The position numbers were made by a program, and so were the translations under genes. A DNA stretch of 64,000 bases. It comes from Alphaproteobacteria bacterium (lineage in GTDB: Bacteria > Pseudomonadota > Alphaproteobacteria > Rs-D84). Below the pieces are notes generated by a model. That model made no database searches and was not told the DNA's origin. It saw nothing but the letters and a program-made list of their open reading frames with translations. Within the stretch, counting starts at the first letter, position 1; every line of letters begins with the position of its first letter. The stretch spans positions 96,001-160,000 of the forward strand of contig JAVBPX010000001.1 of the NCBI GenBank assembly GCA_031549365.1. Direction: 5' to 3'. This document shows positions 7,055 to 61,183 of this stretch, one piece after another.

Positions 7055-8408
7055 ATTCAAACCAGGGATATCGCGTGATGCAATTACACAATTATCAAAA
7101 TTGCGTAACGAACCTTCTTGGTTACTGGATTTTCGATTAAATGCATTTGAACATTGGAAAACAATGAGCGAACCACATTGGTCCACAACAACATATGATC
7201 CAATTGATTACCAATCAATAACATATCATTCCAAACCCACTATTAATGATGAAATTGATGCTGATACAAAATCAGTATATGACAAATTGGGAATCCCAGA
7301 ACACGAACAACGCGCATTAATGGGAATGGCTGTGGACGCTATATTGGACAGCTCATCCATACATACATCATATCAATCCGATTTGGAAAAATTGGGAATT
7401 ATATTTATGCCTATGTCTGATGCTATCAAAAAACATCCTGAATTGGTTCGAAAATATTTGGGAACGGTTGTTCCACATACAGATAATTTTTTTGCATGCT
7501 TGAATTCCGCAGTATTTTCAGACGGGACATTTGTATATATTCCATCCGGAGTTAAATGCCCGATTGATTTGGCATCATACTTTCGAATTAATACAGCAAC
7601 CATTGGCCAATTCGAACGAACATTAATAATTGCAGAATCCGGGTCTGAATTATCTTATCTCGAGGGGTGCTCGGCCCCGCGCCGTCCAAACCATCAGTTA
7701 CATTCCGGAATTGTTGAAATAATCGCACATGATAATTCAATTGTAAAATACGCCACTGTTCAAAATTGGTACGCTGGAAATTCCGATGGCGTTGGCGGCA
7801 TATATAATTTCGTAACCAAACGTGGAATTGTTCATAAAAACGCAAAATTATTATGGACCCAGCTCGAGGTTGGATCCGCCAAAACCTGGAAATACCCATC
7901 GTCAATATTAATGGGCGATAATTCACATTCCGACTTTTATTCATTATCAATCACACGCCATCACCAAATGGCCGACACAGGAACAAAAATGATTCATATT
8001 GGAAACAATTCAACATCAAATATATTATCCCAGGGTGTCGCTATGGAACAATCAAATCAAACTTTCCGATCATTGATTACATTTGGCAAAAATACAACCG
8101 GCGCCAAAAGCGCATCAAATTGCGATTCAAAAATTATTGGGAATATGGCATCGGTAAACACATTACCAACCGTTCGCCATATGAATTCAAATAATACTTC
8201 GGGGCACGAGGCAAAAACATCCGCAATATCCGAATCCCAATTATTCTTTTTGAACGCATCCGGAATTGGTTCAGATCTGGCCACAGGATTAATTATTGGC
8301 GGGCTTGCAGCACCTATTCTTTCTCGCCTTCCTATGGAATTTTTAATAGAATCAAAACAGCTAATTCAAATCGCAGTATCAAATGGTGATAAAAATGCTA
8401 CAAATTAA
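7047..8408 (+). CDS. sufB: Fe-S cluster assembly protein SufB
   Basis: LNSAVFSDGTFVYIP, GQFERTLI, YLEGCSAP, YNFVTKRG, TWKYPS, ADTGTKMIH. Confidence 0.95.
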   Translation: MHEFKPGISRDAITQLSKLRNEPSWLLDFRLNAFEHWKTMSEPHWSTTTYDPIDYQSITYHSKPTINDEIDADTKSVYDKLGIPEHEQRALMGMAVDAILDSSSIHTSYQSDLEKLGIIFMPMSDAIKKHPELVRKYLGTVVPHTDNFFACLNSAVFSDGTFVYIPSGVKCPIDLASYFRINTATIGQFERTLIIAESGSELSYLEGCSAPRRPNHQLHSGIVEIIAHDNSIVKYATVQNWYAGNSDGVGGIYNFVTKRGIVHKNAKLLWTQLEVGSAKTWKYPSSILMGDNSHSDFYSLSITRHHQMADTGTKMIHIGNNSTSNILSQGVAMEQSNQTFRSLITFGKNTTGAKSASNCDSKIIGNMASVNTLPTVRHMNSNNTSGHEAKTSAISESQLFFLNASGIGSDLATGLIIGGLAAPILSRLPMEFLIESKQLIQIAVSNGDKNATN

Positions 8409-9072
8409 AAATTTAACCGTAACAAACGGAAATAAAAAATTATTGAATAATGTTTCAATTAATATTGCTGATAATTCAATCCATTTGTTATCTGGCCCAA
8501 ACGGCAGTGGCAAAACCAGTCTATTAATGACAATCATGGGACATCCAGACTATGTTGTCGAATCTGGTGAAATTTTATTTAATGGCAAAAACATTGTTAA
8601 TATAACTCCAACCGAACGTTCATTAATTGGGATTGCCTTGTTACAACAACATGTGCCTGAAATACCGGGATTAACAGTATCATCATATTTAAAACACGCA
8701 ATGTCAGCACATTATAAAAATAAATTTGGGAATGATTTGACCGCTGGTGAATTTTTTAAAATGTTAAATGATGCCACTGAAAATTTATCAATCCCGGCAC
8801 CTTGGCTATCGCGATCAATTAATGTTGGTTTTTCGGGTGGGGAACGTAAAAAATTGGCCCTGCTCTATCTCTATTTAATAAAACCAAGATTGGCCATGAT
8901 TGATGAACCCGATTCGGGATCCGATTTGGATACACAAAAATTAATAGCAAAAACAATTTTGGAACTGCATCAATCCGGCACCACATTTATTGTAATTTCG
9001 CACCAACCAACGTTTACGGAAATGATACATCCAACCAATGTATCAAAAATTGACAGCGGCACCATATTATAA
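8383..9072 (+). CDS. sufC: Fe-S cluster assembly ATPase SufC
   Basis: GPNGSGKT, RSINVGFSGGERKK, DEPDSG; adjacent to sufB. Confidence 0.92.
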   Translation: MVIKMLQIKNLTVTNGNKKLLNNVSINIADNSIHLLSGPNGSGKTSLLMTIMGHPDYVVESGEILFNGKNIVNITPTERSLIGIALLQQHVPEIPGLTVSSYLKHAMSAHYKNKFGNDLTAGEFFKMLNDATENLSIPAPWLSRSINVGFSGGERKKLALLYLYLIKPRLAMIDEPDSGSDLDTQKLIAKTILELHQSGTTFIVISHQPTFTEMIHPTNVSKIDSGTIL

Positions 9073-9158
9073 ATGGATTAATCTCCTATATTATTTTCTG
9101 TGGATTCCTTAAATTTTGTGATATAATACGCACGTTAAAACCATACAGGAGGAACCAC

Positions 9159-9956
9159 ATGGTAAAAAAACTAAAAGCCCCCTCGGCTCCGTCAAAATCC
9201 GTCGCCACAAAACAATCGAAAACCCAAAAACGCAGTTTGTGCTCTTGGTTTATGAGCCCACGCGAACATTTGGATCGCCTCAGCTATATCGCCATTTCAT
9301 TAAACTTATTGTTGCACGCGATTATTGCAGGAATCGGATTGCACTATTTTCATAAAAAAATCATGATGGCCTGGACAATTACCGGCCAAATGGTTCCATT
9401 GAAATTAATCTTATCACCTGCTGAACGCATTGTTTTGACAGTATTTGGAATCTATATGCTGTGGATTATCGTAATGTCTGTATTTACGATTATTAAACGT
9501 AGTCGCAAATTGGGACTGGCTGGCTGGACAATGTTATTTTCATTTCCATTCGGATTGCACACCCTGTCATTATCTGGATTCTTTTTGCCGGATTCGGACG
9601 AAAAAATGGCATTGGATTTGCGCATGAACTGGTTTAAAAAATTGGTAAATTGGGTTGCTTATTCAACACCAGGCCAAATGTTATCTGGCATTTTAATTAT
9701 GTTGTCTTCATGGATTGCGGCACCAATTATATTTGTATTTGATTTCTTGTTCTTTTGGCTGCCAGCATCATTGTTTGGCCGCGAAAAAGTTTCGAAATCA
9801 TTCAAAAATTATGCCCCTGTTATCGCAGTATTTAACATTTTGATGATTATCTTGTTGGTAATTGCAATCGCATTGGTGTACCGCGCATATTTAAATATGA
9901 CGCCAGGATCTGAATTAACAGTTTCTGAAACAATTTCTGCAACTGTAACAAAATAA
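9159..9956 (+). CDS. hypothetical multi-pass membrane protein
   Basis: 265 aa, several TM helices, RBS AGGAGG, TATAAT upstream. Confidence 0.75.
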   Translation: MVKKLKAPSAPSKSVATKQSKTQKRSLCSWFMSPREHLDRLSYIAISLNLLLHAIIAGIGLHYFHKKIMMAWTITGQMVPLKLILSPAERIVLTVFGIYMLWIIVMSVFTIIKRSRKLGLAGWTMLFSFPFGLHTLSLSGFFLPDSDEKMALDLRMNWFKKLVNWVAYSTPGQMLSGILIMLSSWIAAPIIFVFDFLFFWLPASLFGREKVSKSFKNYAPVIAVFNILMIILLVIAIALVYRAYLNMTPGSELTVSETISATVTK

Positions 9957-9959
9957 TTA

Positions 9960-11009
9960 ATGGGGACGACAATGTCAAAATTTCTATCTATTGTATTTGG
10001 AATACTTGGTGTTGTCGTCCTGTTATCCTTGGGACAGTCTGTAATTGTTCCATTTTTGGTCGCAATATTTGGCTGGTATTTAATTAATGCTCTGGCTACA
10101 TATTACGCCATGGTTATGCCACGCCCGAAATCAAAATGGACAAAAATATTTTCATTACTTTTTTCAATTGCAACCACCATTGGATTGGTCTGGTTGTTTG
10201 TAATTGAAATGACTCCAAACATCCATTTATTTATGGAAAGATGGCCTCAAATCCAATCAAAATTAATTATATTTTTACGCCAACTATTGGAACCTGTTGG
10301 AATTACAATATCAACATCTGCGATGAATATGGAATTTAATGAAATTGCTATGGCATTTCGTTCATCCCTGGCGGGATTATTTACATCCATGGGGTTAATA
10401 TTGGTGTATATATTCTTTATGTTTATTGAACAAGGAACTTTTGTTAATAAAATTCGTGCTCTTTTCTCTGAAAACAATCAGCACAAAAAAATCCTGCGAA
10501 TATTTCGTGACATCGACCATAATATGAAAAAATATTTATTTATCAGAACTGTAATGTCATCCATGATGGGTGTGTCATCTTATTTATGGATGTCCTACTT
10601 TAATTTGGAATTGGCTGGTTTTTGGGCATTTTTAATATTCGTATTAATGTATATTCCAACATTTGGATCAATTCTGGCATGTGCATTGCCTATACTTTAT
10701 TCATTGTTATTCTTTCGCGATATATCGGACACCATTACAATGGGACTTGGGATCGCAGCATTACAAATTGTTATCGGAAATATATTGGAACCAAAATTGA
10801 CCGGACAGACTTTGAATTTATCCACTTTGGCCATATTGGTAAACTTGGTATTCTGGGGAATTTTATGGGGACCCGTTGGAATGTTTTTCAGTGTCCCATT
10901 GTTGGTCGCAATATTGGTTGTAACATCACAATTTGATTCGATGCGTCCATTTGCAATTTTATTGTCCGCGAACGGAATAATCCCAGACAAGGAAGAAGAC
11001 GATAATTAA
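9960..11009 (+). CDS. AI-2E family transporter
   Basis: YIPTFGS, IGNILEPKLTG, FWGILWGPVGMFFSVPL motifs. Confidence 0.9.
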   Translation: MGTTMSKFLSIVFGILGVVVLLSLGQSVIVPFLVAIFGWYLINALATYYAMVMPRPKSKWTKIFSLLFSIATTIGLVWLFVIEMTPNIHLFMERWPQIQSKLIIFLRQLLEPVGITISTSAMNMEFNEIAMAFRSSLAGLFTSMGLILVYIFFMFIEQGTFVNKIRALFSENNQHKKILRIFRDIDHNMKKYLFIRTVMSSMMGVSSYLWMSYFNLELAGFWAFLIFVLMYIPTFGSILACALPILYSLLFFRDISDTITMGLGIAALQIVIGNILEPKLTGQTLNLSTLAILVNLVFWGILWGPVGMFFSVPLLVAILVVTSQFDSMRPFAILLSANGIIPDKEEDDN

Positions 11010-11039
11010 AAATAAACCAGAAACAAAATTTAAAAACTT

Positions 11040-11064
11040 GGGGCCCAATTTGGGCCCCACTTTT
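11040..11064. terminator. bidirectional intrinsic terminator
   Basis: GGGGCCCAA-TT-TGGGCCCC hairpin flanked by A/T runs between convergent genes. Confidence 0.75.
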
Positions 11065-11645
11065 TATTTAACTGATTTTATTTTCTTTGTTGCTTCTATT
11101 GTATATGTGACTGCGGACCAAATTGATAAAATCATTGCGATCCATAAACATAACATTGAAGCATAAAACACCAATTCCATAAATTTCGAATAAATGTATG
11201 GTGTACGAACCAAGGCTAAAAACAAATACAGACCGCTAATTGAAATAAATTGTGTGGCTGCTTTGATTTTACCAATTGAAAATCTTGGCTTTGGCACAGG
11301 CAATGAAATTTTCATTGATCCCAACCATTCGCGTAACCCAGATACATATAATTCACGCAAAATCATTAATATTGATGGTATCACACATGCCCATGCGCCC
11401 CACACAACCATCAATAACATTAATGCGATTGCCACCAAAAATTTATCACCCATGTGATCCATTACGCCGCCAAATTTGCTCTCCACTTTGTATTTTCTGG
11501 CCAAATACCCGTCAAAAAAATCCGTTGCTGCTGCGATTGAAAAAACAATAAACGCCGCACCAAACATTTGATTCATTGCCAATGGAATCAATGTAAAAGC
11601 ACCAATAATTCGAAATATAGTTAAAGCGTTAACAAATGTTTTCAT
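11064..11645 (-). CDS. pgsA: CDP-diacylglycerol--glycerol-3-phosphate 3-phosphatidyltransferase
   Basis: NALTIFRI, TDFFDGYLAR...GGVMDHMGDK CDP-alcohol phosphotransferase motif; uvrC-pgsA synteny. Confidence 0.9.
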   Translation of the reverse strand: MKTFVNALTIFRIIGAFTLIPLAMNQMFGAAFIVFSIAAATDFFDGYLARKYKVESKFGGVMDHMGDKFLVAIALMLLMVVWGAWACVIPSILMILRELYVSGLREWLGSMKISLPVPKPRFSIGKIKAATQFISISGLYLFLALVRTPYIYSKFMELVFYASMLCLWIAMILSIWSAVTYTIEATKKIKSVK

Positions 11646-48394: not shown

Positions 48395-50065
48395 CTATCC
48401 ATTGATGATGTTGTTTAACCTGTCAATTACCCGGCTTTTACCCATAACTTGCATAATTGAATACAAGTCTGGGGTCATTTTACGTCCCGTTATTGCAACA
48501 CGCAAAAAAGACGCGACATCTGATACCGTCCCAATGTACTTATCGGGGGCAGCATCGTATTCCTTTTGATTTTTGGCAAAACCAAACCTTTCACCCAAAT
48601 CGCGAACGCCGTTGAACCAATCTGATGCGTCCAGCGCATCATCATAATTATCACGAAACTCGGATAAAACAGATATAATAACTTCATGGTTCAACCCATT
48701 GAATTCAGATTCAAATTTTGATTTTGTTAATTTGAATAAATCGTCATAGAAATACGATACTTCATCTAAAGTCTGACGCCATGTAACAAAATCTTTTCTG
48801 ATTCTTTTCGGATTATCGCGTTCAATCGCCAACATATTTTTTAAATAATCCGGGGATTTGGCAATTCGTTCCGACCAATCAGCATCATATTTCATGGCAA
48901 ATTCGTAAACGCTTGCAAACAAATCGTTAATCGACAATGTCGCAATCCATTCACGCGAAATGCTCTCTAATTTTTTCATATCAAATAATGCGCCTGATGG
49001 ACTCATCTTTTTTAAATTGATTGGATATGACCACATGTTAATTGATGAATTTTTTAATTTCGCATCTTCGTACCCAGATGCTGCAATATTAAACAAATAT
49101 TCCAAAATTGCCTGAGGAGCAAAACCCTGCTCTAACATTAATGCAATTGATGCTTCGGGGTCGTGACGTTTTGAAATTTTACGGCGTGATTCGCCATCCA
49201 TTTTATCAATTGTCCCCAAATGAGCATAAACAGGCACATCCCAACCCATCATTTGAAATAACGACACGTGCAAAGGCATTGATGACAACCATTCTCCGCC
49301 ACGAACAACGTGCGTTGTGCGCATTAAATGATCATCAACCAAATGGGCAAAATGATATGTTGGCAAACCATCCGATTTTAAAATAACAATATCCGTGTCG
49401 TTTTGCGGAAATGCAATTGATCCGCGGAGAGCGTCCTTACAATAAATTTTTTCATCATAATTACCGGTTGAATATAATCTAAAAATTGGTTTTTTCCCGG
49501 CGTCCAAACGCGTGATAATTTCATCCTCGGCCAAATTACGATCACGGGCATATTCACCGTAAAAGCCGGGCCTCAACCCACTTTTCGTTTGAATGGATGT
49601 GATTTTTTCAATATCATCTTCGGCCATAAAACATGGGTATGCCAAACCGCGCTCCAATAAATCAGCAACATATGTTTTATAAATTTCAACGCGATGACTT
49701 TGGGTATATGGGCCATAATTACCGTGCTCGCCCCCACCCAGTTTTGGGCCCTCGTCAATCTTTAATCCGAATCTTGATTCAACCTCTAAAATAACATCTA
49801 TTGAACCTGCGACCGAACGTTTTGTGTCGGTATCTTCGATACGTATAAAAAATACACCATTTGATTGATGGGCCAAACGCTCGTTTATCATTAACATATT
49901 TAATGAGCCCAAATGCAAAAACCCGGTTGGGGATGGCGCGAAACGCGTAACCATTGCCCCGTCCAACAATTCTCGCTTTGGATACATTTCTTCCAATTGA
50001 TTTGGGGTATATTTAACATCCCCTAACAAACGTCCAATTAATGATTTTGATAGGCCTGATCTCAT
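48395..50065 (-). CDS. gltX: glutamate--tRNA ligase
   Basis: TRFAPSPTGFLHLG, RIEDTD, PTYHFAHLVDD, KISKR; start moved to MRSGL. Confidence 0.93.
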   Translation of the reverse strand: MRSGLSKSLIGRLLGDVKYTPNQLEEMYPKRELLDGAMVTRFAPSPTGFLHLGSLNMLMINERLAHQSNGVFFIRIEDTDTKRSVAGSIDVILEVESRFGLKIDEGPKLGGGEHGNYGPYTQSHRVEIYKTYVADLLERGLAYPCFMAEDDIEKITSIQTKSGLRPGFYGEYARDRNLAEDEIITRLDAGKKPIFRLYSTGNYDEKIYCKDALRGSIAFPQNDTDIVILKSDGLPTYHFAHLVDDHLMRTTHVVRGGEWLSSMPLHVSLFQMMGWDVPVYAHLGTIDKMDGESRRKISKRHDPEASIALMLEQGFAPQAILEYLFNIAASGYEDAKLKNSSINMWSYPINLKKMSPSGALFDMKKLESISREWIATLSINDLFASVYEFAMKYDADWSERIAKSPDYLKNMLAIERDNPKRIRKDFVTWRQTLDEVSYFYDDLFKLTKSKFESEFNGLNHEVIISVLSEFRDNYDDALDASDWFNGVRDLGERFGFAKNQKEYDAAPDKYIGTVSDVASFLRVAITGRKMTPDLYSIMQVMGKSRVIDRLNNIING

Positions 50066-50216
50066 ACTTAAATCCTTTTTATAACGGCTTATATTATAAT
50101 CCCCCTCCCCAATAATGCAAGAGGATTTAACCATCCTGTTAATTCAAGCCCTTGAAATATTTTTATTGAACTGTTATAATTCGCCCAATACCAAAGGTAT
50201 GCATTTGGGGAATAAC

Positions 50217-51781: not shown

Positions 51782-51873
51782 GGAGAGGTGGCAGAGCCCG
51801 GTTGAATGCGCTCGACTCGAAATCGAGTATACTGGCGACAGTATCGGGGGTTCGAATCCCCCCCTCTCCGCCA
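51782..51873 (+). tRNA. tRNA-Ser(CGA)
   Basis: GGAGAGG/CCTCTCC acceptor, CTCGA-CT-CGA-AA-TCGAG anticodon arm, long variable arm, TTCGAAT, G73-CCA. Confidence 0.96.
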
Positions 51874-51926
51874 GACAAGATATTGATTTTACTACAATTT
51901 TTTACAAAATCGATAACCCTTGAATT

Positions 51927-51951
51927 ATCCCCGGAATTCGGGGATTTTTTT
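51927..51951 (+). terminator. terminator after tRNA-Ser
   Basis: ATCCCCG-GAATT-CGGGGAT followed by a T run. Confidence 0.8.
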
Positions 51952-52088
51952 GATGCGATTTTAAGGTTATTGCAATGGTATGTGATTTAATATGTGAAAA
52001 TACGGCGATATTTTGATGTTTACATACAATGCCCGTTTTTGGCAGTGCACTGTTCATTGGTGCGAGGAAATTTTAAGGGAGTTTATTA

Positions 52089-52191
52089 TTGACTTTTTTG
52101 ATGATTTGTGGTATAATGCAGAGTATATTAGGACGGATTTTATCCGTCTTTTTTAATTTTAGTCCCGCTATTTTTGGCGGGGCTTTTTTTT
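52089..52191 (+). promoter_or_regulatory. sigma70 promoter followed by two terminator-like hairpins
   Basis: TTGACT-17-TATAAT (52089-52117); GACGGA-TTTTA-TCCGTC+T run; CCCGCTA-TTTT-TGGCGGG+T run. Confidence 0.65.
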
Positions 52192-52210
52192 ATATTTTTA
52201 AGGGAGTAAT

Positions 52211-52990
52211 ATGAAAAATAATTTTTTTAACGAACAATCTTTAAATTCTGATATTAAAACTCAGATTATCTTAGCTACATTTAAACTTTGGCTTCAAGAC
52301 AATAAAAAGGAACAAAATCTATCTTATATTGATCTATTTTCAGGGCCTGGCATATATGATGATGGAACATTATCTACACCGATATGTATTTTACAGGAAA
52401 TTTGCAATAATAAGAGAATGGCACAGAGATTCAATGTGATCTTAAATGATTATAATGCAGAATTTATTGCAAAATTGCGTCGTATGATTTTGAATGTGAA
52501 AAATGCTAGGTTTATAAAAACTTTGGTTACTTCGATTGGTAATGCTGAAAGTTTTCAAAAGACCGTATCTAATAATGAACATATCTTCATGTTAATTGAT
52601 CCTTGGGGATGGAAGGGTATAAATAGAAATTATATTAATAATATGTTATTAAATAAGGACTGTGATATTGCGGTGATGTTTAATTTTAATCAGTTTAATC
52701 GGTTTATGAATTTTGATATCGCAGATGAATTGTTTAATGATTTGTTTGATAAAAAAACTTTGCACGAAATACGTAAATTTTGTAGCACAAATCCAAAATC
52801 GGAAAGAGAACAATTCGTGATAGATAAATTTGTGAAAATGGTTTGTAAAAATTGTGAAAATTGTAATTACACGCCATTTAAATTTAAGATGGAAAAATCG
52901 ACGCGTACAAGCCATTATATTATTTTTATAATTCGTGATAAAGATAGATTTCAAGCAACGAAAACTTTGTTAAATCAATACTTGGCTTGA
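52211..52990 (+). CDS. tcmP: three-Cys-motif partner protein (TcmP, SAM-methyltransferase-like fold)
   Basis: YIDLFSGPGxYDDG...TP, LIDPWGWKG; directly upstream of DUF5131. Confidence 0.8.
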   Translation: MKNNFFNEQSLNSDIKTQIILATFKLWLQDNKKEQNLSYIDLFSGPGIYDDGTLSTPICILQEICNNKRMAQRFNVILNDYNAEFIAKLRRMILNVKNARFIKTLVTSIGNAESFQKTVSNNEHIFMLIDPWGWKGINRNYINNMLLNKDCDIAVMFNFNQFNRFMNFDIADELFNDLFDKKTLHEIRKFCSTNPKSEREQFVIDKFVKMVCKNCENCNYTPFKFKMEKSTRTSHYIIFIIRDKDRFQATKTLLNQYLA

Positions 52991-53021
52991 AAAATAATAT
53001 CGTTTCTGGCATAATGTGAAT

Positions 53022-53756
53022 ATGGCAGAAAAATCTAAACTTGAATGGACGGATGCAACGTGGAACCCAGTTGTTGGATGTACAAAGTACAGCGATGGGT
53101 GTATAAATTGTTATGCAAAACCAATTGCAGAACGTTTGTGTAGACAAGGAGTTTTTGGATACGAAAATGGTTTTAAAATGACATTGCGTCCAGAGCGTTT
53201 GGAAATTCCATTGCATTGGAAAAAACCAAGATTAATATTTGTAGACTCCATGTGCGATTTATTTCACGATGATGTGCCATTAGAATATATTCAGAAAGTT
53301 TTTGCAATAATGAAGCGTGCAGATTGGCATGTTTATACCATATTAACAAAACGATCAAAGCGTTTGCGTGAATTGGCGTCAAACCTTGAATGGATGCCGC
53401 ATGTTGTAATGGGTGTAACGATTGAATCCGATAAATATCGTGATAGGCTGGATGATTTGAAGGCTGTGCCTGCATATATGCGATATTTATCATTGGAGCC
53501 ATTGTTGGGACCAATTAACCGATTGGATTTGGATGGAATTGATTGGGTTATTGCTGGTGGAGAATCCGGACCAAATGCACGGCAACTGGATACAAATTGG
53601 GTCAGAGAAATTCGCGATTGGACATTGGAACAAAAAGCTGCGTTTTGGTTTAAACAGTATAGCGAGTATGGGGGACAGCATAAAGACCCTATTTTAGATG
53701 GGGAAAAATATAAGCAATTTCCAGATTTTAAAACCGGAAAACCGAGTCTGTTTTAA
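53022..53756 (+). CDS. DUF5131 (phage Gp37/Gp68-like) radical-SAM-like protein
   Basis: EWTDATWNPVVGCTKYSDGCINCYA, SMCDLFH, LTKR, SLEPLLG, WVIAGGESG, FKQ. Confidence 0.9.
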   Translation: MAEKSKLEWTDATWNPVVGCTKYSDGCINCYAKPIAERLCRQGVFGYENGFKMTLRPERLEIPLHWKKPRLIFVDSMCDLFHDDVPLEYIQKVFAIMKRADWHVYTILTKRSKRLRELASNLEWMPHVVMGVTIESDKYRDRLDDLKAVPAYMRYLSLEPLLGPINRLDLDGIDWVIAGGESGPNARQLDTNWVREIRDWTLEQKAAFWFKQYSEYGGQHKDPILDGEKYKQFPDFKTGKPSLF

Positions 53757-54387: not shown

Positions 54388-55980
54388 ATGTCGGATAACA
54401 ATGCCATTCATTGGGCGGATTTTATTGCAGAGCGAATAATTCGTGAAAAAGGCGATAAAGATTTATATACTTTGGCCAGCGGAATTACCCCGTCTGGGAC
54501 AATTCATATTGGAAAATTTCGCGAGATTATAACCACCGAATTGGTGTCCCGGGCGTTGGTTCGCATGGGGAAAAAGGTACGTTTTATTTATTCTTGGGAT
54601 GATTATGATACTTTTCGCAAAGTGCCGGGCGATATGCCACAGCAAGAGATGTTAAAAGAATTATTGTATCAGCCGATTGTCGATATTCCAGATGTTTACG
54701 GAACAGAAAGTTCTTATGCTCGGCATAACGAAGTGTCGTTGGAACGTATTGCTCCGGTATTGGGCATAACAAATATTGAATTTATTTATCAAAGTCGGAT
54801 GTATCGTAGTGGCGAATATAATGATTTGATTATAAAGGTTATGGATTCGCGAGATAAAATTCGTGATATTTTACAGACATCTAAAAGCCAGGGGATGGAT
54901 GAAGAGTTTTATCCTATTGCAACTTATTGCAGCAATTGCAATCGTGACCGAATTGTTTTTTCAAATTATAATACATCAGATAAAACAGTTGATTATAAGT
55001 GTAAGTTATGCAACCACACGGAAAAGTTAAATTTACGCGATTCAAGGCGGCTGAAATTGCCTTGGCGAATTGATTGGCCAATGCGTTGGGCATTTGAAAA
55101 TGTTGATTTTGAACCAGGTGGGACAGATCATTCTTCGGCTGGGGGCAGTTTTGATACCAGCAAAGTAATCGTTAGTGAGATTTTTGGAGGGGCGTCTCCG
55201 GTTTATGCAAAATATGCATTTGTATTGCCAAAGGGTGAAAGCAAAAAGATGTCTTCGTCAATTGGTAACGGGTTTTCTGTGGAAAGCGTTTTGCAGGTTT
55301 ATGAACCAGAAATGATACGTTGGTTTTTTGCTTCGTATAAACCAGATGCGCAGTTCAGTATGGCTTTTGACATTGATGTTTTGAAGAATTACGAAGCATT
55401 TGACCGAATGGAACGCGTGGTTTATGGATTGGAAGATGTGAATGATGACAGGCGTGCAGTGCAGCGGCGTATTTATGAAATGTCTCAGATAAATTTTGAT
55501 GGAAAGATTCCGGAACAGATGCCTTTTCAGCCGAGTTTTAGGCACCTGTGTAATCAGTTGCAAATAAACGAATTTGATATCGAAAAAACCAGAGCATATT
55601 ACGCCCACCAAATCAAAAATGACATCGATGAACAACGGTATCAAGAAAGGTCCAAATGCGCAGTATTTTGGATACAAAATTGTGCTTCGGATGATTTCAA
55701 ACTTATATTGAATTCCGAAAAACGCAATGACATGACATTGTCGACAGATGAAAAAAAGTTCGTGAATGACTTGCACAAAATGTTGGAGATTGATTGGGAC
55801 AATTTAGATGACGAACGCGTCTTACAAAGTAAGGTCGGTGAATTAATTAAGGCCAACGGATTGGAAGTACTAAATGCGTATAAACTGTTATATCAGTTAC
55901 TGGTCAATCGGGACCAAGGACCAAAGCTGGCCGGATTTATTTTGGGTATTGGCAAGGATAAGATTCTGAATTTGTTGTAA
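54388..55980 (+). CDS. lysS: class I lysine--tRNA ligase (spirochaete-like)
   Basis: HWAD, ASGITPSGTIHIG, SWDDYD..RKVP, KLPWRIDWPMRW, KMSSS, GPKLAGFI. Confidence 0.93.
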   Translation: MSDNNAIHWADFIAERIIREKGDKDLYTLASGITPSGTIHIGKFREIITTELVSRALVRMGKKVRFIYSWDDYDTFRKVPGDMPQQEMLKELLYQPIVDIPDVYGTESSYARHNEVSLERIAPVLGITNIEFIYQSRMYRSGEYNDLIIKVMDSRDKIRDILQTSKSQGMDEEFYPIATYCSNCNRDRIVFSNYNTSDKTVDYKCKLCNHTEKLNLRDSRRLKLPWRIDWPMRWAFENVDFEPGGTDHSSAGGSFDTSKVIVSEIFGGASPVYAKYAFVLPKGESKKMSSSIGNGFSVESVLQVYEPEMIRWFFASYKPDAQFSMAFDIDVLKNYEAFDRMERVVYGLEDVNDDRRAVQRRIYEMSQINFDGKIPEQMPFQPSFRHLCNQLQINEFDIEKTRAYYAHQIKNDIDEQRYQERSKCAVFWIQNCASDDFKLILNSEKRNDMTLSTDEKKFVNDLHKMLEIDWDNLDDERVLQSKVGELIKANGLEVLNAYKLLYQLLVNRDQGPKLAGFILGIGKDKILNLL

Positions 55981-55984
55981 TTCA

Positions 55985-56749
55985 TTACCTTTCTTGTATG
56001 TGCTTTCCCATAATGCACTGGCGAGCGATGATTTTTTTGATGTTACTGCCGACAAGTTGCGATGTTAGAGGGCAATGATAGCTTTTTTTGAAATTTTCAG
56101 TGCATTGTTGTAAAGTTTCTGTAAAATTTGGTTTATAAAATTTTCCAATTTCTATACCCACAGGGGTGTTTTCAAGATTTCCCTTTGCTATTTCGTTATC
56201 AAAATTTTGTTTTGTAGTCGCAATTATATGTTTATTATCAGTGGTATGCAAGTGTGGTTCAGCCCTCTCCCATTGCGGTTGTGTAGATACAAATTTATCG
56301 GCCTCTTGCTTGTATGTTGAGTGTAATAGTGGACTATCTTTTAGTATTATTTTAGGTAAGTGCAACACCCATAAAATAATTCGAGCATATTGAAATTGCG
56401 ATAATATGCAATCAGTTAATACGCATGAAGAACTCATAATTGACGGTAGAGAATCTTTAATGTTATTTGCAATGTATATGAGATCTGAAAGGCATTCTTT
56501 GTCTAGGCAAAATCCAAGGTGGTCAAAATCCTTTTGAAGGTCGTAATGCAGTTTCTTCATGTATTCAAGAAATTTTTTTTCTTGTTCGTGGTTGGATTTT
56601 TTTAGTAATATAAAAGTGTCAACATCTGAATTTGTTTTATCTTCACCTCGAGCAGTTGAGCCACATATAAATGAAAACTCTAGATTGTCTCCGAATATCT
56701 CTCGGGTATCTAAGTCCAATTGTTTTATCTGTTTTTTTGTTATTTTCAT
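55985..56749 (-). CDS. Pol-beta-superfamily nucleotidyltransferase-domain protein
   Basis: FICGSTARGEDKTNSDVDTFI (hGS...DxD). Confidence 0.8.
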   Translation of the reverse strand: MKITKKQIKQLDLDTREIFGDNLEFSFICGSTARGEDKTNSDVDTFILLKKSNHEQEKKFLEYMKKLHYDLQKDFDHLGFCLDKECLSDLIYIANNIKDSLPSIMSSSCVLTDCILSQFQYARIILWVLHLPKIILKDSPLLHSTYKQEADKFVSTQPQWERAEPHLHTTDNKHIIATTKQNFDNEIAKGNLENTPVGIEIGKFYKPNFTETLQQCTENFKKSYHCPLTSQLVGSNIKKIIARQCIMGKHIQER

Positions 56750-56771: not shown

Positions 56772-58229
56772 TTATAAGTATCTTACGATTTCTCTCTGAG
56801 GTAGAATTGGTTGTGGAGTAAATATGCCTTTGTAATAGATTCCAGATGCATGCTTTCCTATACCGCCATATGGTTTGTATCCATGCTCGAAATTGTGTAG
56901 ATGGTCATTCACAAGTATAGAGTCCGGCATATGGATTTTTTCATCATAAAGTATGGCTATTGTTTCTTCTTTTAATTTTCCATAAACTGTCAAAAACATA
57001 GCTGATTCTTTATATTTTGTATTTTTGAAATAGTTTATAAGTTCATTTTCTGAATCATAAGGTTGTATAAAGAATATTGGACAGAACAATTCTTCGTAAT
57101 TAGCTCCTTCAGAGAGATCCTTTACTATTACCGTAGGATATATCATATTTTTTGAAGCGTCTATAAGACCTCCATAATAAATATTCTTCCGATTGTTATA
57201 AATTAGTTTTGCAGCATTTAATGCGTATCCATCTTTTGTATTAGGCATTATTATCGTGGATTTTTCAGGATTTGAATTACAGTTTTCATGAATTTCTTTT
57301 AATTTATTTATTAAAATTTCTTGAAAATCTGTTAAACAATCTCTTTTCACAAGTAATGCATTTGGGGCGGCACAGTCTTGTCCTTGGTTGTATGTTCCAA
57401 GCTCGATACATGCTTCGACGGCTTCTTTGATATTTGACCGAAGATTTATTATAACCGGGTTTTGTCCAGCACCACCAAAGAAACAATATAACTCTTTGTT
57501 ATACGATCTTTTTACTTTCTTCATGTTTTCATATGTACCTGTAAATATAAATGCCTTTATTTCATTTCGTGTAATATTGAGAAAATCCTCTCTTCCTCCA
57601 TAGAATATTTCTATATTTGGCATACTTGATAAATTTAACAATTTATCTAGCTCTTTAAAAACGTCTTGAGAATCATTTGGATATCTAACATATACTTTCT
57701 TACAAATATACGATGGAACAAGAGCAAAACAAACAAAGGAATACAGCAATTGGTTTAAAGGCATAAATGACGCGATTGGTGCTTTCTCTTTTAAAAAGTA
57801 TTCCTTATTTATGGTAAGATTTGTAAGAAGGTCTATTGATCTATCAATTTCATCACATATTGTATTATAGGTGGCATATGATGAAAGAGCTTTATAGATA
57901 TCTTCTCTGCGCTGATTTAATTGAAACGAAAAATTGAGCGCGTCTGTTAAAATTTTATCAAAGTCTAGATTATTTTCCACGTCTTTTTTAGAAATATTTG
58001 TTCTTTGTCCAAACCAAGAGCCAATTTCCTTTTTACTGAGTTTCTCTGTTTTTACTATAAGCCCTAAGTCATTTTTTTCATACTCCAGGCTGAGATTGTT
58101 AATATTGTGGAGTATATTATCTTTAGCTTTTGTATCCATCTCATCAAATTTGAGGATAAAAGTCAGCCCATTTTTATCTTGTAAAATGGTTCCAATAGGC
58201 TGTTTCTTTTTCCTTACTATGAAGTCCAT
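56772..58229 (-). CDS. aldehyde dehydrogenase-fold protein (atypical)
   Basis: PLNQ, FTGT, GGAGQNP, NQGQDC (catalytic Cys), EELFCP, PYGG; RBS AAGGAG. Confidence 0.85.
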   Translation of the reverse strand: MDFIVRKKKQPIGTILQDKNGLTFILKFDEMDTKAKDNILHNINNLSLEYEKNDLGLIVKTEKLSKKEIGSWFGQRTNISKKDVENNLDFDKILTDALNFSFQLNQRREDIYKALSSYATYNTICDEIDRSIDLLTNLTINKEYFLKEKAPIASFMPLNQLLYSFVCFALVPSYICKKVYVRYPNDSQDVFKELDKLLNLSSMPNIEIFYGGREDFLNITRNEIKAFIFTGTYENMKKVKRSYNKELYCFFGGAGQNPVIINLRSNIKEAVEACIELGTYNQGQDCAAPNALLVKRDCLTDFQEILINKLKEIHENCNSNPEKSTIIMPNTKDGYALNAAKLIYNNRKNIYYGGLIDASKNMIYPTVIVKDLSEGANYEELFCPIFFIQPYDSENELINYFKNTKYKESAMFLTVYGKLKEETIAILYDEKIHMPDSILVNDHLHNFEHGYKPYGGIGKHASGIYYKGIFTPQPILPQREIVRYL

Positions 58230-58260
58230 ATTTTCTCCTTGATTAATGTGGACCTTAAGT

Positions 58261-59760
58261 TTATCTCAACTTTATTTTTTTTAACATGGGAAATGTTAAA
58301 ACATCTCTGATATTAGATGAGTTTGTTAACATCATGGCGAGGCGATCTGCACCTATTCCCATGCCTCCTGTAGGGGGCATACCGTATTCTAAAGCTGTAA
58401 GAAAGGCTTCATCCATTTGCATTGCTTCAGGATCATCTGAAAGAGATGCTTGTTCTTCGAATTTTTTTCTTTGATCTATTGGATTTGATAATTCTGAGTA
58501 AGCTTCACCAAATTCAATGCCGCCAACATAGAGCATAAATCTTTCAGAAAGACGTGGGTTTTGTCGATGTATTTTTGTCAGCGGAGATATATCATATGGA
58601 ACATCCATTACGAAAGTTGGTTGAATAAGAGTTTTTTCGACTTTTTCTTCAAATATAGTTTCTACTACTTTACCCCAAGATTCAGTTCCCTTGAGTCGAA
58701 TTTTGTGTTTTTGGGCAATGCTATGAATTTCCCTATCGCTCATGTTTATAAGATCTTCGTTCAGCGCTTCTGATGCTGCGTCTACCATTGGTAATCTTTT
58801 AAATGGTTTTTCAAGGTCTATTAAGGCATCTTTCCAAGTAATGTGGAGAGAGCTGTTGACAGCCATAGATGAATCTCGCAGCAATCTTTCTGCGAGAATC
58901 ATCATGTCAAAATAGTCTTTATAAGAGCCATATATATCTAGCATTGTGAATTCTGGACTGTGGCGATTATCAATACCTTCATTGCGGAAATTTTTACCAA
59001 TTTCAAACACTCGAGGAATGCCTCCAACAATGAGCCGCTTTAGTTCAAGTTCAGATGCTATCCTGAGATAAAAATCGTCTTTAAGAGAATTATAATGTGT
59101 AGTAAATGGAGCAGCATTTGCACCGGCTTTTACTGGGTGAAGTATAGGTGTTTCTACCTCTATATATCCCTCATCGTGCATTACTTCGCGTATAGCATAC
59201 ATTGCTTTCGCCCTATTGAGAACAACATCCCGAGAGTTTTTGTTTACTATAAGATCTACGGATTTATTGCGGTATCTTTCTTCGGAGTCTGTTAGACCGT
59301 GGTATTTTTCAGGAAGAATATTCAATGATTTTGACAGCATTGTTACTTCCAGAGGAGTAACAGAAACTGCTCCTCGCAAAGTTTTTTTAATTCCTCCCAA
59401 AACACCAATTATATCACCAATGTCAAGATTTTTAAGCATGTTATTAAATTGTGTATCTGCTTTTGGATTTTCATTGCAAATTTGAATTTTTCCGGATTCA
59501 TCTTCAACATCGATGAACATTCCGGAATTTCGGATTGCCATAATTCTTCCTGCAATTTTTACAATGTCTTTTGTATCCGCTGTCTTTTCACCAGGTTGAA
59601 GGTGGCCAAATTCAGCTATTATATTACTGGCAAGATGCGTTGGTTTGTATATGTGTGGATATGCGTTTATTCCTTGAGATTCGATGTCTTTAAGTTTTTG
59701 AATCCTTATTTCTTTTAAAGAATTTATTGGTGTCTTATTATCTTTTTTTTGATTTTGCAT
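58261..59760 (-). CDS. lysS: class II lysine--tRNA ligase paralogue (full length, with OB-fold)
   Basis: AGRIMAIR, LPEKYHGL, EVETP, YLRIASEL, FRNEG..HSPEF, YGMPPTGGMGIGADRL. Confidence 0.92.
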   Translation of the reverse strand: MQNQKKDNKTPINSLKEIRIQKLKDIESQGINAYPHIYKPTHLASNIIAEFGHLQPGEKTADTKDIVKIAGRIMAIRNSGMFIDVEDESGKIQICNENPKADTQFNNMLKNLDIGDIIGVLGGIKKTLRGAVSVTPLEVTMLSKSLNILPEKYHGLTDSEERYRNKSVDLIVNKNSRDVVLNRAKAMYAIREVMHDEGYIEVETPILHPVKAGANAAPFTTHYNSLKDDFYLRIASELELKRLIVGGIPRVFEIGKNFRNEGIDNRHSPEFTMLDIYGSYKDYFDMMILAERLLRDSSMAVNSSLHITWKDALIDLEKPFKRLPMVDAASEALNEDLINMSDREIHSIAQKHKIRLKGTESWGKVVETIFEEKVEKTLIQPTFVMDVPYDISPLTKIHRQNPRLSERFMLYVGGIEFGEAYSELSNPIDQRKKFEEQASLSDDPEAMQMDEAFLTALEYGMPPTGGMGIGADRLAMMLTNSSNIRDVLTFPMLKKIKLR

Positions 59761-59782
59761 AGATATACCTTTTTATACTTTT

Positions 59783-59855
59783 TGGGGGGCGGTCCGGATT
59801 TGAACCGTACCTCTGAGGGAAAACTCAGCGTTCTGCCTAATTATACTACCCGCCC
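59783..59855 (-). tRNA. non-canonical tRNA-like gene (73 nt including CCA)
   Basis: GGGCGGGTAGTATAATTAGGCAGAACGCTGAGTTTTCCCTCAGAGGTACGGTTCAAATCCGGACCGCCCCCCA: acceptor GGGCGG/CCGCCC, D-loop GG, CTGAG/CTCAG arm with 6-nt loop, GGTTCAAATCC, CCA. Confidence 0.8.
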
Positions 59856-59938
59856 TATAATTGTGATGAAGTGATCCCATCAACTTATCATTGTTTATGT
59901 CAAAAGCAATTTAAATGTCAATAATTATTTTTTGTTAT

Positions 59939-61051
59939 TTATTTGTTATTTAATATAATTAATGGCACTTGCATTTCGGATGCTGTCCCGCCTGCATGTT
60001 CAGATGCTGGTGAGCCAAACTCTTCCCAAGCTTTTTGATTTTGATGCAATGATTTGTTTCCTATTCCAATTGCGACATAGTCCCCGATTGATTCATCTTC
60101 CAGCACTCTATTCTTGGCAGAATACCAGTGAAGGTAGTTTGTTTTAAAAGTTTCCTTATTGATCAGCAAAAAATCTTTCTCCGAAAATATTTCATAAAAT
60201 ATTCTTTCAAAGCTATTTTTAGCCTCTGGTTTTACGAAAAATTGTGTACAACGCGCCTCACATGAAATCGGCATTATCAGAGTGTCAGCAATACCCGTAA
60301 AATCTTCGATAAATAAGGGCAAAGTATCAATATGACCGTGATCAGCAGTTATGATGAATAATGTATCTGGGCAATTATTTTGCAAATTTATTATTGCATC
60401 TCGTATATTGCAGATACAATTTCTGGCTTCGCCAGACAAAATTCCGTGATCATGGTTAGTGCTATCTGGCTCCGGCCAATACGCGTATATGTAATTTTTA
60501 TTGGCATTTTTTGTATTTGCTATTTTTTCAATAGTTGAACACCATTTCTCAACTGTATTATGCTCTGGTGTAATAAACTGAGGCATAACCTCAAAAGCGC
60601 TCCATTCGGAAATATCATTGATTTGGTCAACAAGTAATGCTGGCATTTTTTCCAACGGAGGCTTCGTAAGATGAGATGATTCACCACTATAAAAGTCACA
60701 ATTAGTAAAATTTTCGACAATCTCTCCAGATTCTTTATAATATTGCGACCATCCCAATAACCCATGTGATACAGGCAACAGCCCCGTGCGCAAAGTTGTT
60801 GTGGCGGCAACCGTAGTAGAAGGAACTATTGTATCAATAGTATCATATTTGTTTTTATAAAAATAGTCTGTCACAGAATCGCTTAATACATCCAGCTGTT
60901 CTGTCCCCATTCCGTCTAGGACTATAAGAGCTATGTTTTTGTACACTTCCGATGACCACGAATTTATGATCATTGGATGCGACTCATAATTTGGACATAG
61001 TCCAACAATTTTTTGTATTGCAGATGTTATTGATGTTATATCGTATTTCAT
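59939..61051 (-). CDS. alkaline-phosphatase-superfamily nucleotide pyrophosphatase/phosphodiesterase
   Basis: LIVLDGMG, PSTT, EPDSTNHDHG, ITADHG, EHAG; probable start MKYDI. Confidence 0.85.
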   Translation of the reverse strand: MKYDITSITSAIQKIVGLCPNYESHPMIINSWSSEVYKNIALIVLDGMGTEQLDVLSDSVTDYFYKNKYDTIDTIVPSTTVAATTTLRTGLLPVSHGLLGWSQYYKESGEIVENFTNCDFYSGESSHLTKPPLEKMPALLVDQINDISEWSAFEVMPQFITPEHNTVEKWCSTIEKIANTKNANKNYIYAYWPEPDSTNHDHGILSGEARNCICNIRDAIINLQNNCPDTLFIITADHGHIDTLPLFIEDFTGIADTLIMPISCEARCTQFFVKPEAKNSFERIFYEIFSEKDFLLINKETFKTNYLHWYSAKNRVLEDESIGDYVAIGIGNKSLHQNQKAWEEFGSPASEHAGGTASEMQVPLIILNNK

Positions 61052-61183
61052 GAGGTACATATTAGCAATGACATATCTTGAAGTCAACCGCGTATTTGGT
61101 TGAAAGTTGAGCGGAATTCTAGTTTCGTGGGAATATTGGTTGTTTTTATGTTTTGGTAATGAATTTTCATTGTTATTTAAAAT

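Follow-up and report, generated by a model that had tools for sequence, protein, structure and literature searches.

A shrunken tRNA-like gene upstream of an extra lysyl-tRNA synthetase gene and an aldehyde dehydrogenase-like gene in an alphaproteobacterial genome

The DNA analyzed here (the window) is a stretch of 64,000 nt, positions 96,001 to 160,000 of contig JAVBPX010000001.1, from an Alphaproteobacteria bacterium (assembly GCA_031549365.1) whose genome (97.6% complete) comprises 15 contigs with a total of 911 kb. Its minus strand carries a shrunken tRNA-like gene at 59783..59855, called the element below, followed by three closely spaced protein genes of the same orientation. The encoded CCA of the element is separated by 22 nt from the ATG of a gene for a divergent, extra class II lysyl-tRNA synthetase (LysRS; 58261..59760, minus strand; PF00152, PF01336 and NF001756), referred to here as the operon LysRS. 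Its stop codon is followed after 31 nt by a gene for a 485-aa protein resembling aldehyde dehydrogenases (ALDHs) and LuxC (56772..58229, minus strand; PF00171 and an AlphaFold model), for which we propose a function as a lysyl-tRNA reductase. The last gene of the operon begins 22 nt beyond the stop codon of the ALDH-like gene and encodes a Pol-beta-type nucleotidyltransferase (NTase; 55985..56749, minus strand; PF01909 and PF18765). No terminator-like sites were found inside the operon, and promoter and terminator scans of the window were not above shuffled sequence (23 against 23.5 expected and 4 against 3.1, respectively).

The element is 73 nt long, including the encoded CCA, and its sequence agrees with the anatomy that was described for it in the initial annotation. 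The acceptor stem has six G-C pairs (GGGCGG/CCGCCC), with G7 opposite an A. The D stem is formed by G-C, U-A, A.A and U.G, and the D loop includes a GG. In the anticodon arm, the stem is perfect (CUGAG/CUCAG, 5 of 5 pairs) and surrounds a loop of six nucleotides, UUUUCC. In the T stem, the successive positions are U-A, A.G, C-G, G-C and G-C, closing the loop UUCAAAU, and the 3' end consists of a discriminator C and then the CCA. In either register, the acceptor and T stems stack as 11 layers (6 + 5) rather than as the 12 pairs (7 + 5) of a canonical elongator tRNA. The tertiary core is kept, as read from the sequence: U8, A14, G18G19, A21, G26/A44, G53-C61 and T54-A58.

As had been anticipated, tRNA finders do not give the element a definite identity. 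ARAGORN places it at 59784-59856 (minus strand) and reports a 'tRNA-???' with a two-base anticodon, for which the label offers Lys or Glu; in the accompanying drawing, the six G-C pairs recur with a shift of one base and are topped by an A.C pair. With the Rfam tRNA model (RF00005) it scores 28.6 bits against a gathering threshold of 29 (E 0.0005 in a 401-nt search), in an alignment that spans all 71 model positions, one loop position and the pair 53-61 being deleted. At the gathering threshold, the sole tRNA reported in the window is a tRNA-Ser, described below. Among the 45 ARAGORN calls in the genome, the element is the only one without a 7-nt anticodon loop and a purine at position 37; the 44 others all have such a loop, with U33 and the purine. 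Since it is the only tRNA call of the genome that breaks this rule, and since the tertiary core is kept, the element is more than a chance match. It is a real and unusual tRNA-like gene.

The loop is composed of two homopolymer runs (TTTT, and CC continuing into a stem C), where a single base could be lost from a true 7-nt loop by an error of sequencing or assembly. Two sequencing runs bear on this point, X1 (DNA) and X2 (metatranscriptome), and both come from one study. The DNA contigs from X1, which is possibly the source of the DNA analyzed here, span the whole operon and are identical to it at a depth of 32.6. A metatranscriptome contig of 218 nt (X2, record 15; depth 2.5) covers 59705-59922 with no differences and no gaps, and bridges the element and the start of the operon LysRS gene. 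The agreement between the DNA contig and the RNA-library contig, without a listed indel, rules out the slip of one assembly and no more, as contigs may mask rare variants. One added T or C would still leave the loop without a purine 37, and the 11-layer helix and the stem mismatches are unrelated to homopolymers. The assembly error for which the initial annotation had allowed was thus not borne out, and we regard it as highly improbable. Further RNA-library contigs cover 59391-59707, 58243-58452 and 55653-56194; such contigs cannot give strand, ends or level, and RNA libraries may contain DNA.

The translational set of Lys and Glu tRNAs is complete without the element, which is an additional gene. 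The ordinary tRNAs of the genome number 44 and include those for Lys(UUU), Lys(CUU), Glu(UUC) and Glu(CUC); the encoded CCA is common to all 44, like U33 and the purine 37. The closest resident tRNA shares 53 of 73 positions with the element, which corresponds to the ordinary background between tRNAs, and blastn found the element in a single copy, with only 12-nt chance matches elsewhere in the genome. Judged by these comparisons, it is not a recent copy of any resident tRNA. It might still be supposed to work in translation as a Lys or Glu isoacceptor, perhaps by doublet or frameshift reading, as UUU and UUC occur in overlapping registers of its loop, ARAGORN suggests these two amino acids, and the CCA and tertiary core would suit such a function. 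This supposition has very little in its favor when set beside the canonical tRNAs for all Lys and Glu codons, the regular loops of the 44 other tRNAs, the acceptor/T helix that is one layer short and has a T-stem mismatch, and the fact that the gene was not found in relatives; nor was any need for programmed frameshifting seen, although no search was aimed at it. A tRNA-Glu lacking A37, to which the ARAGORN label 'Lys|Glu' could refer, is less likely because the neighboring gene encodes a LysRS and the body of the element is unlike the tRNA-Glu of the genome. A remnant of an att site or a tRNA fragment was also considered and rejected: the element is of full length, its best resident match is at the background level given above, and no flanking repeat was found.

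Homologs of the element were sought through its neighbors as well as by its own sequence. In what follows, G000 is the genome under study, and G, L and P numbers denote relatives, loci (from metagenomes unless stated otherwise) and database proteins, respectively. Across the order-level search set of 328 genomes, G000 among them, an alignment of the ALDH-like family led only to G000 and to a weak, partial match in G080, which is at a contig end with no LysRS or tRNA nearby, and it yielded no homolog of the element. No homolog was obtained via the operon LysRS protein, either in the same 328 genomes or in a class-level sample of 400 genomes searched at E<=1e-165, nor by blastn in the genome itself or in the 80 metagenome loci that had been fetched with the family alignment and on which the neighborhood counts below are based. 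In viral contigs, the exact 16-nt anticodon-arm pattern had three matches, none of them inside a tRNA, and the ALDH-like alignment found nothing. A single-protein scan of a genome-contig collection returned one weak, unrelated locus. Homologs with the same 6-nt loop, for which the initial annotation had proposed a search, were therefore retrieved from none of these sources (order, class sample, 80 loci and viral contigs).

The genome holds three LysRS genes, one of class I, described below, and two of class II, which are the operon gene and a copy on contig C5 (C5:19866-21308, minus strand). The operon LysRS scores 596 bits with NF001756 (cut-off 468) and 541 bits with TIGR00499 (cut-off 428). 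It is 45-51% identical to the LysRS of relatives and 48% identical to the C5 copy, whereas the identity of the C5 copy to the enzymes of three relatives is 70-76%; from these identities, the C5 gene is the inherited housekeeping class II LysRS. Among 8000 candidates scored, the closest relatives of the operon LysRS were P0079-P0081, with 59-62% identity, and the next were at about 50%, from metagenome-assembled genomes mostly labelled Alphaproteobacteria. The operon LysRS and its three closest relatives share a distinct set of replacements: I186A/T, H223Y, N268S/L, E275D, E409M, N419E and A489T. The columns concerned are 94-100% conserved in 117 other class II LysRS (96-100% for H223Y, N268S, E275D, E409M and N419E), and the C5 copy has the usual residue at each. 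We take E275 and N419 to correspond to the lysine-pocket residues E278 and N424 of E. coli LysU/LysS, and E409 to the Mg2+ ligand E414; the operon LysRS lacks these canonical lysine- and Mg-site residues. The anticodon-binding domain, an OB fold (residues 67-141), contains none of these replacements and retains every column that is at least 93% conserved. The catalytic motif residues are invariant, the arginines of motifs 2 and 3 being among the invariant columns of the alignment. Since the signature spares the OB fold and is located at amino-acid- and Mg-site residues, the operon LysRS probably still reads a UUU-type anticodon but with a remodelled amino-acid site.

The ALDH-like protein matches PF00171 with 68 bits (cut-off 23). 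Its AlphaFold model (76 relatives) has a pLDDT of 94, and the top Foldseek matches of the model are ALDHs, with E values down to 7e-22 and a TM score of about 0.65; the N-terminal domain (residues 1-100) has no Pfam family. In an alignment of 76 sequences, from which conservation was read, C286 (in NQGQDCAAPN), N159 and E380 are invariant, and the full motif E380-x-F382-x-P384 is invariant or nearly so. By alignment with solved ALDHs, these residues correspond to the catalytic Cys, the oxyanion Asn and the nicotinamide-ribose motif, and they presumably act as such. Opposite the general-base Glu of ELGGKSP, the window protein has G252 and at least 90% of the 76 sequences have Asn; the residue expected of a classical, hydrolyzing ALDH is thus absent. 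A Cys without a hydrolytic base is typical of the thioester-handling, non-hydrolyzing members of the ALDH superfamily, such as LuxC-type reductases and CoA-acylating enzymes, and several relatives of the ALDH-like protein also match the LuxC model. As far as residues can indicate function, the pattern fits a reductase. The protein does not belong to the glutamyl-tRNA reductase (GluTR) family: its Pfam and NCBIfam matches are of ALDH type only, and the fold search returned ALDHs only. An exhaustive phmmer search found at least 219 representative clusters of the ALDH-like family at E<=1e-30; the family occurs widely among Patescibacteria and also in cultured Xenorhabdus. MprF was examined as another possible consumer of the charged RNA and was rejected, as PF09924 was not found in G000 and the control genomes gave matches.

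Gene fusions tie this family to LysRS. A LysRS domain is present in all 18 relatives of 850-2425 aa (E<=1e-10, precomputed Pfam), of class I in 16 and of class II type in 2, and two of these fusions are from cultured Xenorhabdus species. In P0213, an ALDH-like domain is followed by a complete class II LysRS (611 bits, cut-off 468). Proteins of 750-940 aa that combine parts of a class I LysRS with an ALDH-like domain were noted in X. miraniensis, X. lircayensis and X. hominickii, according to their sources (P0199, P0200 and P0016). One open frame runs through the ALDH-like part and a class I LysRS in 11 of the 80 loci, which Pfam confirms for four, three in the order ALDH-LysRS and one in the opposite order. 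In 45 loci the ALDH-like protein has a C-terminal extension of 148-195 aa, and when these extensions (25 of the 45 aligned) were compared with 13 class I LysRS C-termini, hhalign gave a probability of 99.8% (E 1.4e-27, 142 columns), which makes the aligned extensions homologous to these C-termini. In 6 of the 80 loci, the ALDH-like gene adjoins a full class II LysRS; among the fusion partners of the family, class I LysRS is the most frequent. The two classes of LysRS have unrelated folds and only their function in common. Fusion to both therefore points to a need of the ALDH-like domain for lysyl-adenylate or lysyl-tRNA, and lysyl-tRNA is favored by those forms in which nothing but the C-terminal, tRNA-side domain of class I LysRS has been retained.

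Genes for tRNA-Lys are also enriched near the family. ARAGORN identified 12 tRNA genes in 8 of the 80 loci, half of them tRNA-Lys, and a permissive Rfam scan (9 of 80 loci) added one tRNA-Lys(CUU) that is cut by a contig end. In total, seven of the 13 genes code for tRNA-Lys, and six of the seven are distinct, since L030 and L031 are two records of one DNA; the genome rate for comparison is 2/44 (binomial P 5e-7). The tRNA gene is situated just upstream of the ALDH-like gene in L019 and L091, and about 40 nt after a class II LysRS gene in L030/L031. The tRNA-Lys of L019 has U37; that of L030/L031, identical in two contigs, has G33 and a C.A acceptor pair. The other four tRNA-Lys (L057, L063, L091 and L023) are canonical, and U33 and a purine 37 are kept in all five non-Lys tRNAs of these loci. 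When only modules with a class II LysRS are considered (the window, L019, L030/L031, L039, L071 and L091), a tRNA-Lys-like gene is found in four of the six, and three of these four tRNAs (the element and those of L019 and L030/L031) break the universal anticodon-loop rule. The numbers are small, and the pattern is what one would expect if the tRNAs of these modules had been freed from decoding or selected against it.

Other partners of the family give some indication of the product. According to Pfam, ten long representatives include two fusions with a Pol-beta NTase, two with a pyridoxal phosphate-dependent (PLP) aminotransferase, one with a GNAT and one with a class I LysRS; two of the remaining four have parts of class II aminoacyl-tRNA synthetases and two have nothing recognizable. 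Fusions with an aminotransferase, GNAT or NTase were seen among P0270, P0328, P0233, P0252 and P0258. NTase segments similar to that of the window accompany ALDH-like relatives, by fusion or as neighbors, in P0252, P0258, L095 and L033. The NTase-like segment of L095 is in frame and shares 39% identity with the window NTase (E 2e-10), and in L033 an NTase gene directly follows the fused gene; on the strength of these two loci, the NTase is a recurrent member of the module. In loci of Patescibacteria type, a protein of 113-118 aa with four membrane helices (by eye), SMR-like and without a Pfam match, is encoded just upstream in 31 loci, and a sensor histidine kinase without a Pfam match at 0.001 just downstream of the ALDH-like gene in 43. 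With the ALDH-like gene and its class I LysRS C-terminal domain between them, these two make up a conserved arrangement of three genes in L034-L094 (for example L038:7641-7976, 7986-9830 and 9847-11358). In L030:7950-14278, the order of genes is ALDH-like, an IucA/IucC-type synthetase with an FhuF domain, GTP cyclohydrolase II, a 290-aa protein, class II LysRS and the tRNA-Lys with G33. This compact cluster has the look of one for small-molecule (siderophore-like) biosynthesis that possesses a synthetase and a tRNA of its own. The combination of an aldehyde-forming reductase with a neighboring aminotransferase is well known from natural-product pathways. The partners as a whole (aminotransferase, GNAT, NTase, IucA/IucC and SMR-like protein) suggest an aldehyde or amine product.

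The operon may have entered the genome together with a fifth gene. A gene of the alkaline phosphatase superfamily, phosphodiesterase-like (59939..61087, minus strand; PF01663, 48 bits), ends 83 nt upstream of the element on the same strand and is possibly the first gene of the block. It was not found in the 40 relatives searched, and no link to the ALDH-like loci was seen at E 1e-5; family searches gave no narrower name for this protein or for the NTase. Among the 328 genomes of the order, a full ALDH-like match was found only in G000, and the block was not found in the 327 others. Relatives of the operon LysRS were detected neither in the order at E<=1e-162 nor in the class sample at the threshold given above. 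The G+C content across 56-60 kb is 0.32-0.36, compared with about 0.39 for the contigs of the genome. From the distribution of the ALDH-like, operon LysRS and phosphodiesterase-like genes, the G+C content, and the location of the housekeeping class II LysRS elsewhere, on C5, we conclude that the operon block is foreign and was acquired horizontally.

Foreign DNA of this kind could have brought an ordinary tRNA-Lys that is now decaying as a pseudogene, with the enzymes, if active, using normal Lys-tRNA. The lesions of the element would accord with decay (the lost loop base, the D-stem A.A, the T-stem A.G, G7 opposite A and the sub-threshold Rfam score), as would the canonical tRNA-Lys genes in the related loci L057, L063, L091 and L023 and the lack of any tRNA gene (ARAGORN) in 72 of the 80 ALDH-like loci. 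Drift would be expected in a reduced host genome of 0.91 Mb, and no conserved homolog of the element was found. However, the tertiary core, anticodon stem, T loop and CCA are intact, all four flanking genes are intact and closely packed, and the damage is concentrated at the sites of decoding and EF-Tu action. U33 or R37 is also broken in two other tRNA-Lys linked to such modules, which are otherwise tRNA-like, and the presence of RNA-library contigs over the element speaks against decay. On balance we consider a decaying passenger unlikely, while giving it more weight than any other alternative considered here. The initial annotation had held that a non-ribosomal carrier fits better than random decay; the intact core and the parallel deviations in other modules have weakened decay to this extent, and the several lesions still count in its favor.

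The position of the element, 22 nt upstream of the operon LysRS start on the same strand with no terminator between, raises another possibility, that of a cis-acting tRNA mimic in the LysRS leader, which would serve in autoregulation or would determine the 5' end of the mRNA as a cleavage signal for RNase P/Z. The operator of thrS, for instance, mimics tRNA-Thr. In favor of a mimic, the element is similar to tRNAs of the class cognate to the synthetase encoded downstream, and one RNA-library contig spans both the element and the LysRS start. A full cloverleaf, an encoded CCA and a complete T loop nevertheless exceed the needs of a mimic, no pairing of the element with the ribosome-binding site is apparent from the sequence, and the related modules have free-standing tRNA-Lys genes at other positions (after the LysRS gene in L030, before the ALDH-like gene in L019 and L091). 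A mimic therefore seems improbable.

The interpretation that we tentatively prefer, at close to even confidence, is that the element serves as a tRNA(Lys)-like carrier, kept out of translation and dedicated to a tRNA-dependent, aldehyde-forming reductase. The operon would be transcribed as one RNA from which the tRNA-like part is cut out. The operon LysRS would recognize the U-run of the loop via its OB fold and esterify lysine, or a close analog, to the CCA end. The 6-nt loop, the lack of a purine 37, the 11-layer helix and the T-stem A.G would keep the charged carrier off the ribosome and EF-Tu. C286 of the ALDH-like enzyme would attack the aminoacyl ester to form a thioester, and reduction by NAD(P)H, a step suggested by the residues and the fusions, would release an alpha-amino aldehyde. 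This aldehyde could be processed onward by the NTase and perhaps the phosphodiesterase-like enzyme in the window; in loci other than the window, the part of the NTase would fall to an aminotransferase, a GNAT, an IucA/IucC synthetase or an SMR-type exporter. A private, deviant carrier would protect the translational pool of Lys-tRNA, and the proteome too if the operon LysRS loads an analog. The non-ribosomal carrier proposed in the initial annotation thus gains from the operon with an extra LysRS, an ALDH-like protein and an NTase, and from the linkage of the family to LysRS and tRNA-Lys; it suffers from being a single sequence with no homolog that has the same loop.

Several observations weigh against a dedicated carrier. 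The first are the lesions listed above and the 72 loci without a tRNA gene, from which it follows that the family evidently can use ordinary tRNA-Lys and does not require a private tRNA. As the searches yielded no homolog of the element, neither covariation nor proof of selection on the 6-nt loop is available. In E. coli, A73 is an identity element for LysRS, and the element has C at this position. The signature of the operon LysRS may be a habit of its lineage rather than a new specificity. The RNA support consists of low-depth contigs of one study that are possibly derived from DNA. In minimum-energy folding, the cloverleaf of the element has -14.0 kcal/mol compared with -25.0 for an alternative fold (z -1.73); as 15 of the 44 genuine tRNAs of the genome likewise have a minimum-energy fold other than the cloverleaf, this last point is not decisive. 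A more far-reaching version of the carrier hypothesis would make the remodelled LysRS and the tRNA with a 6-nt loop and 11 layers a natural orthogonal pair that feeds an ALDH-fold aminoacyl-tRNA reductase, of a second class that would follow GluTR and have no structural relation to it. The reductase would convert lysyl-tRNA, or a tRNA charged with a lysine analog, to an amino aldehyde on the way to polyamine- or siderophore-like products. We put this version forward with distinctly less confidence, as a possibility that is rather doubtful at present.

Among known systems, the closest RNA to the element is tRNA-Other of B. cereus, and the closest chemistry is that of GluTR. The staphylococcal tRNA-Gly that serves FemXAB is like the proposed carrier in being an extra tRNA, weakened for translation, that feeds a non-ribosomal enzyme; it is unlike the element in having a 7-nt loop, the housekeeping GlyRS and a Fem transferase as consumer, with no private synthetase. 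The anticodon loop of tRNA-Other is of normal size. Whereas tRNA-Other has no operon with a LysRS and an ALDH-like enzyme, the element has a 6-nt loop with a U-run, a short helix and an adjacent candidate consumer. In the available part of its description, tRNA-Other is a pseudo-tRNA by foreign DNA that is poorly lysylated in vitro and does not occur in polysomes (PMC3399842). By the same account, it resembles the element as an extra tRNA-like gene beside foreign DNA in a host with class I and class II LysRS, and differs from it in its Trp anticodon and its regulatory role at trpS1; the staphylococcal tRNA-Gly is mentioned there as well (PMC3399842). The accessible text of a review of non-canonical tRNAs gives the 7-nt loop as the rule, with 8 nt in yeast mitochondrial tRNA-Thr, and mentions no 6-nt loop (PMC7609411). 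Naturally non-canonical tRNAs, such as the allo-tRNAs (8/4 and 9/3) and mitochondrial tRNAs, are like the element in that, in the portions of the sources at hand, unusual stems are mis-scored by finders (PMC7609411, PMC5389517); they have 12 stacked pairs and a 7-nt loop (PMC7609411), in contrast to its 11 layers and 6 nt. Full-text searches, mostly without subscription journals and supplements, found no literature on an ALDH-LysRS fusion, a lysyl-tRNA reductase or a bacterial tRNA with a 6-nt loop, and the LysRS-linked reductase family is probably undescribed.

GluTR (HemA) is like the proposed enzyme in its chemistry, which consists of attack by a Cys on the ester of an aminoacyl-tRNA and reduction by NADPH to an alpha-amino aldehyde. 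It is unlike it in having another fold and family and in using Glu on an ordinary tRNA-Glu, whereas here the enzyme is of the PF00171 family and would be of lysine type, with its own tRNA and synthetase. LuxC (PF05893) and the CoA-acylating ALDHs share with the family the ALDH fold, the catalytic Cys, the lack of a general base and a conversion between thioester and aldehyde; their donors are acyl-CoA, acyl-ACP and acyl-protein, while the family described here is tied to LysRS and tRNA-Lys. Aminoacyl-tRNA is likewise diverted by MprF/LysX, cyclodipeptide synthases, LanB and the PEARLs, which are transferases and not reductases, and we know of none of these that brings a tRNA with a 6-nt loop. 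LysX offers a further parallel, since in it, too, a consumer enzyme is fused to a LysRS of class II (NF002821).

To our knowledge, few tRNAs are kept for work outside translation, and they usually differ only subtly from normal ones. If the carrier interpretation is true, the element would be an extreme case, with no normal anticodon, its own synthetase and a likely consumer adjacent. The occurrence of an ALDH branch fused to both LysRS classes points to an undescribed tRNA-dependent reductase, of which GluTR is the only analogue known to us, and it is conceivable that the partner enzyme represents a novel type of tRNA-dependent enzyme. The window would provide a minimal set of four genes and one RNA, and the fused versions in cultured Xenorhabdus would be tractable systems. 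A synthetase/tRNA pair that is naturally excluded from translation would also be of interest for the engineering of orthogonal pairs.

The class I LysRS gene of the window (54388..55980, plus strand; PF01921 383 bits, TIGR00467 478 bits) is convergent with the operon, and its end is 4 nt from the NTase stop codon. Of the 40 relatives searched, 11 have a class I LysRS with 60-79% identity to the encoded protein, and the flanks of the relatives' genes have no genes in common with the window. Most relatives have a class II LysRS; among the holders of class I, at least G012 and G023 are without a strong class II match, and G017 has both. In relatives G008 and G022, a tRNA-Gly(GCC) is located upstream of lysS. 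In two loci of relatives, L008:1205-1281 and L011:1341-1417, a tRNA-Gly(GCC) with a terminator-like hairpin is found just upstream of the housekeeping lysS, and the same tRNA-Gly adjoins tRNA-Lys(UUU) on contig C1 of the genome under study. This tRNA-Gly was considered as an origin of the element and rejected, because it belongs to the C5-type housekeeping gene.

On the far side of the class I LysRS gene, a canonical tRNA-Ser(CGA) (51782..51873, plus strand; ARAGORN, Rfam 57.7 bits) is followed by an ORF of 259 aa without a Pfam family and then by a DUF5131 (phage-associated) gene, the three together occupying 51782-53756. The GC skew is strongly positive and the G+C content low at 52-56 kb. 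The tRNA-Ser region may be an edge of the inserted DNA; an att-like repeat of the tRNA-Ser was looked for and none was found. The neighboring GluRS gene (48395-50134, minus strand) encodes 579 aa, compared with the 470 positions of the bacterial model; the catalytic-domain match runs from residue 61 on, and the anticodon-binding match is confined to the last 40 residues.

Two minor observations concern individual metagenome loci of the ALDH-like family. The ALDH-like gene at L091:7854-9428 has 14 in-frame stops under table 11, located at conserved Gly positions (for example in NGAGHNP), from which it follows that this organism reads TGA as Gly, as in table 25 (Gracilibacteria/SR1 type). At L043:5800-5858 (minus strand), about 2 kb upstream of the ALDH-like gene, there is an RNA resembling the nhaA-I riboswitch (RF03057, 39.4 bits against 37).

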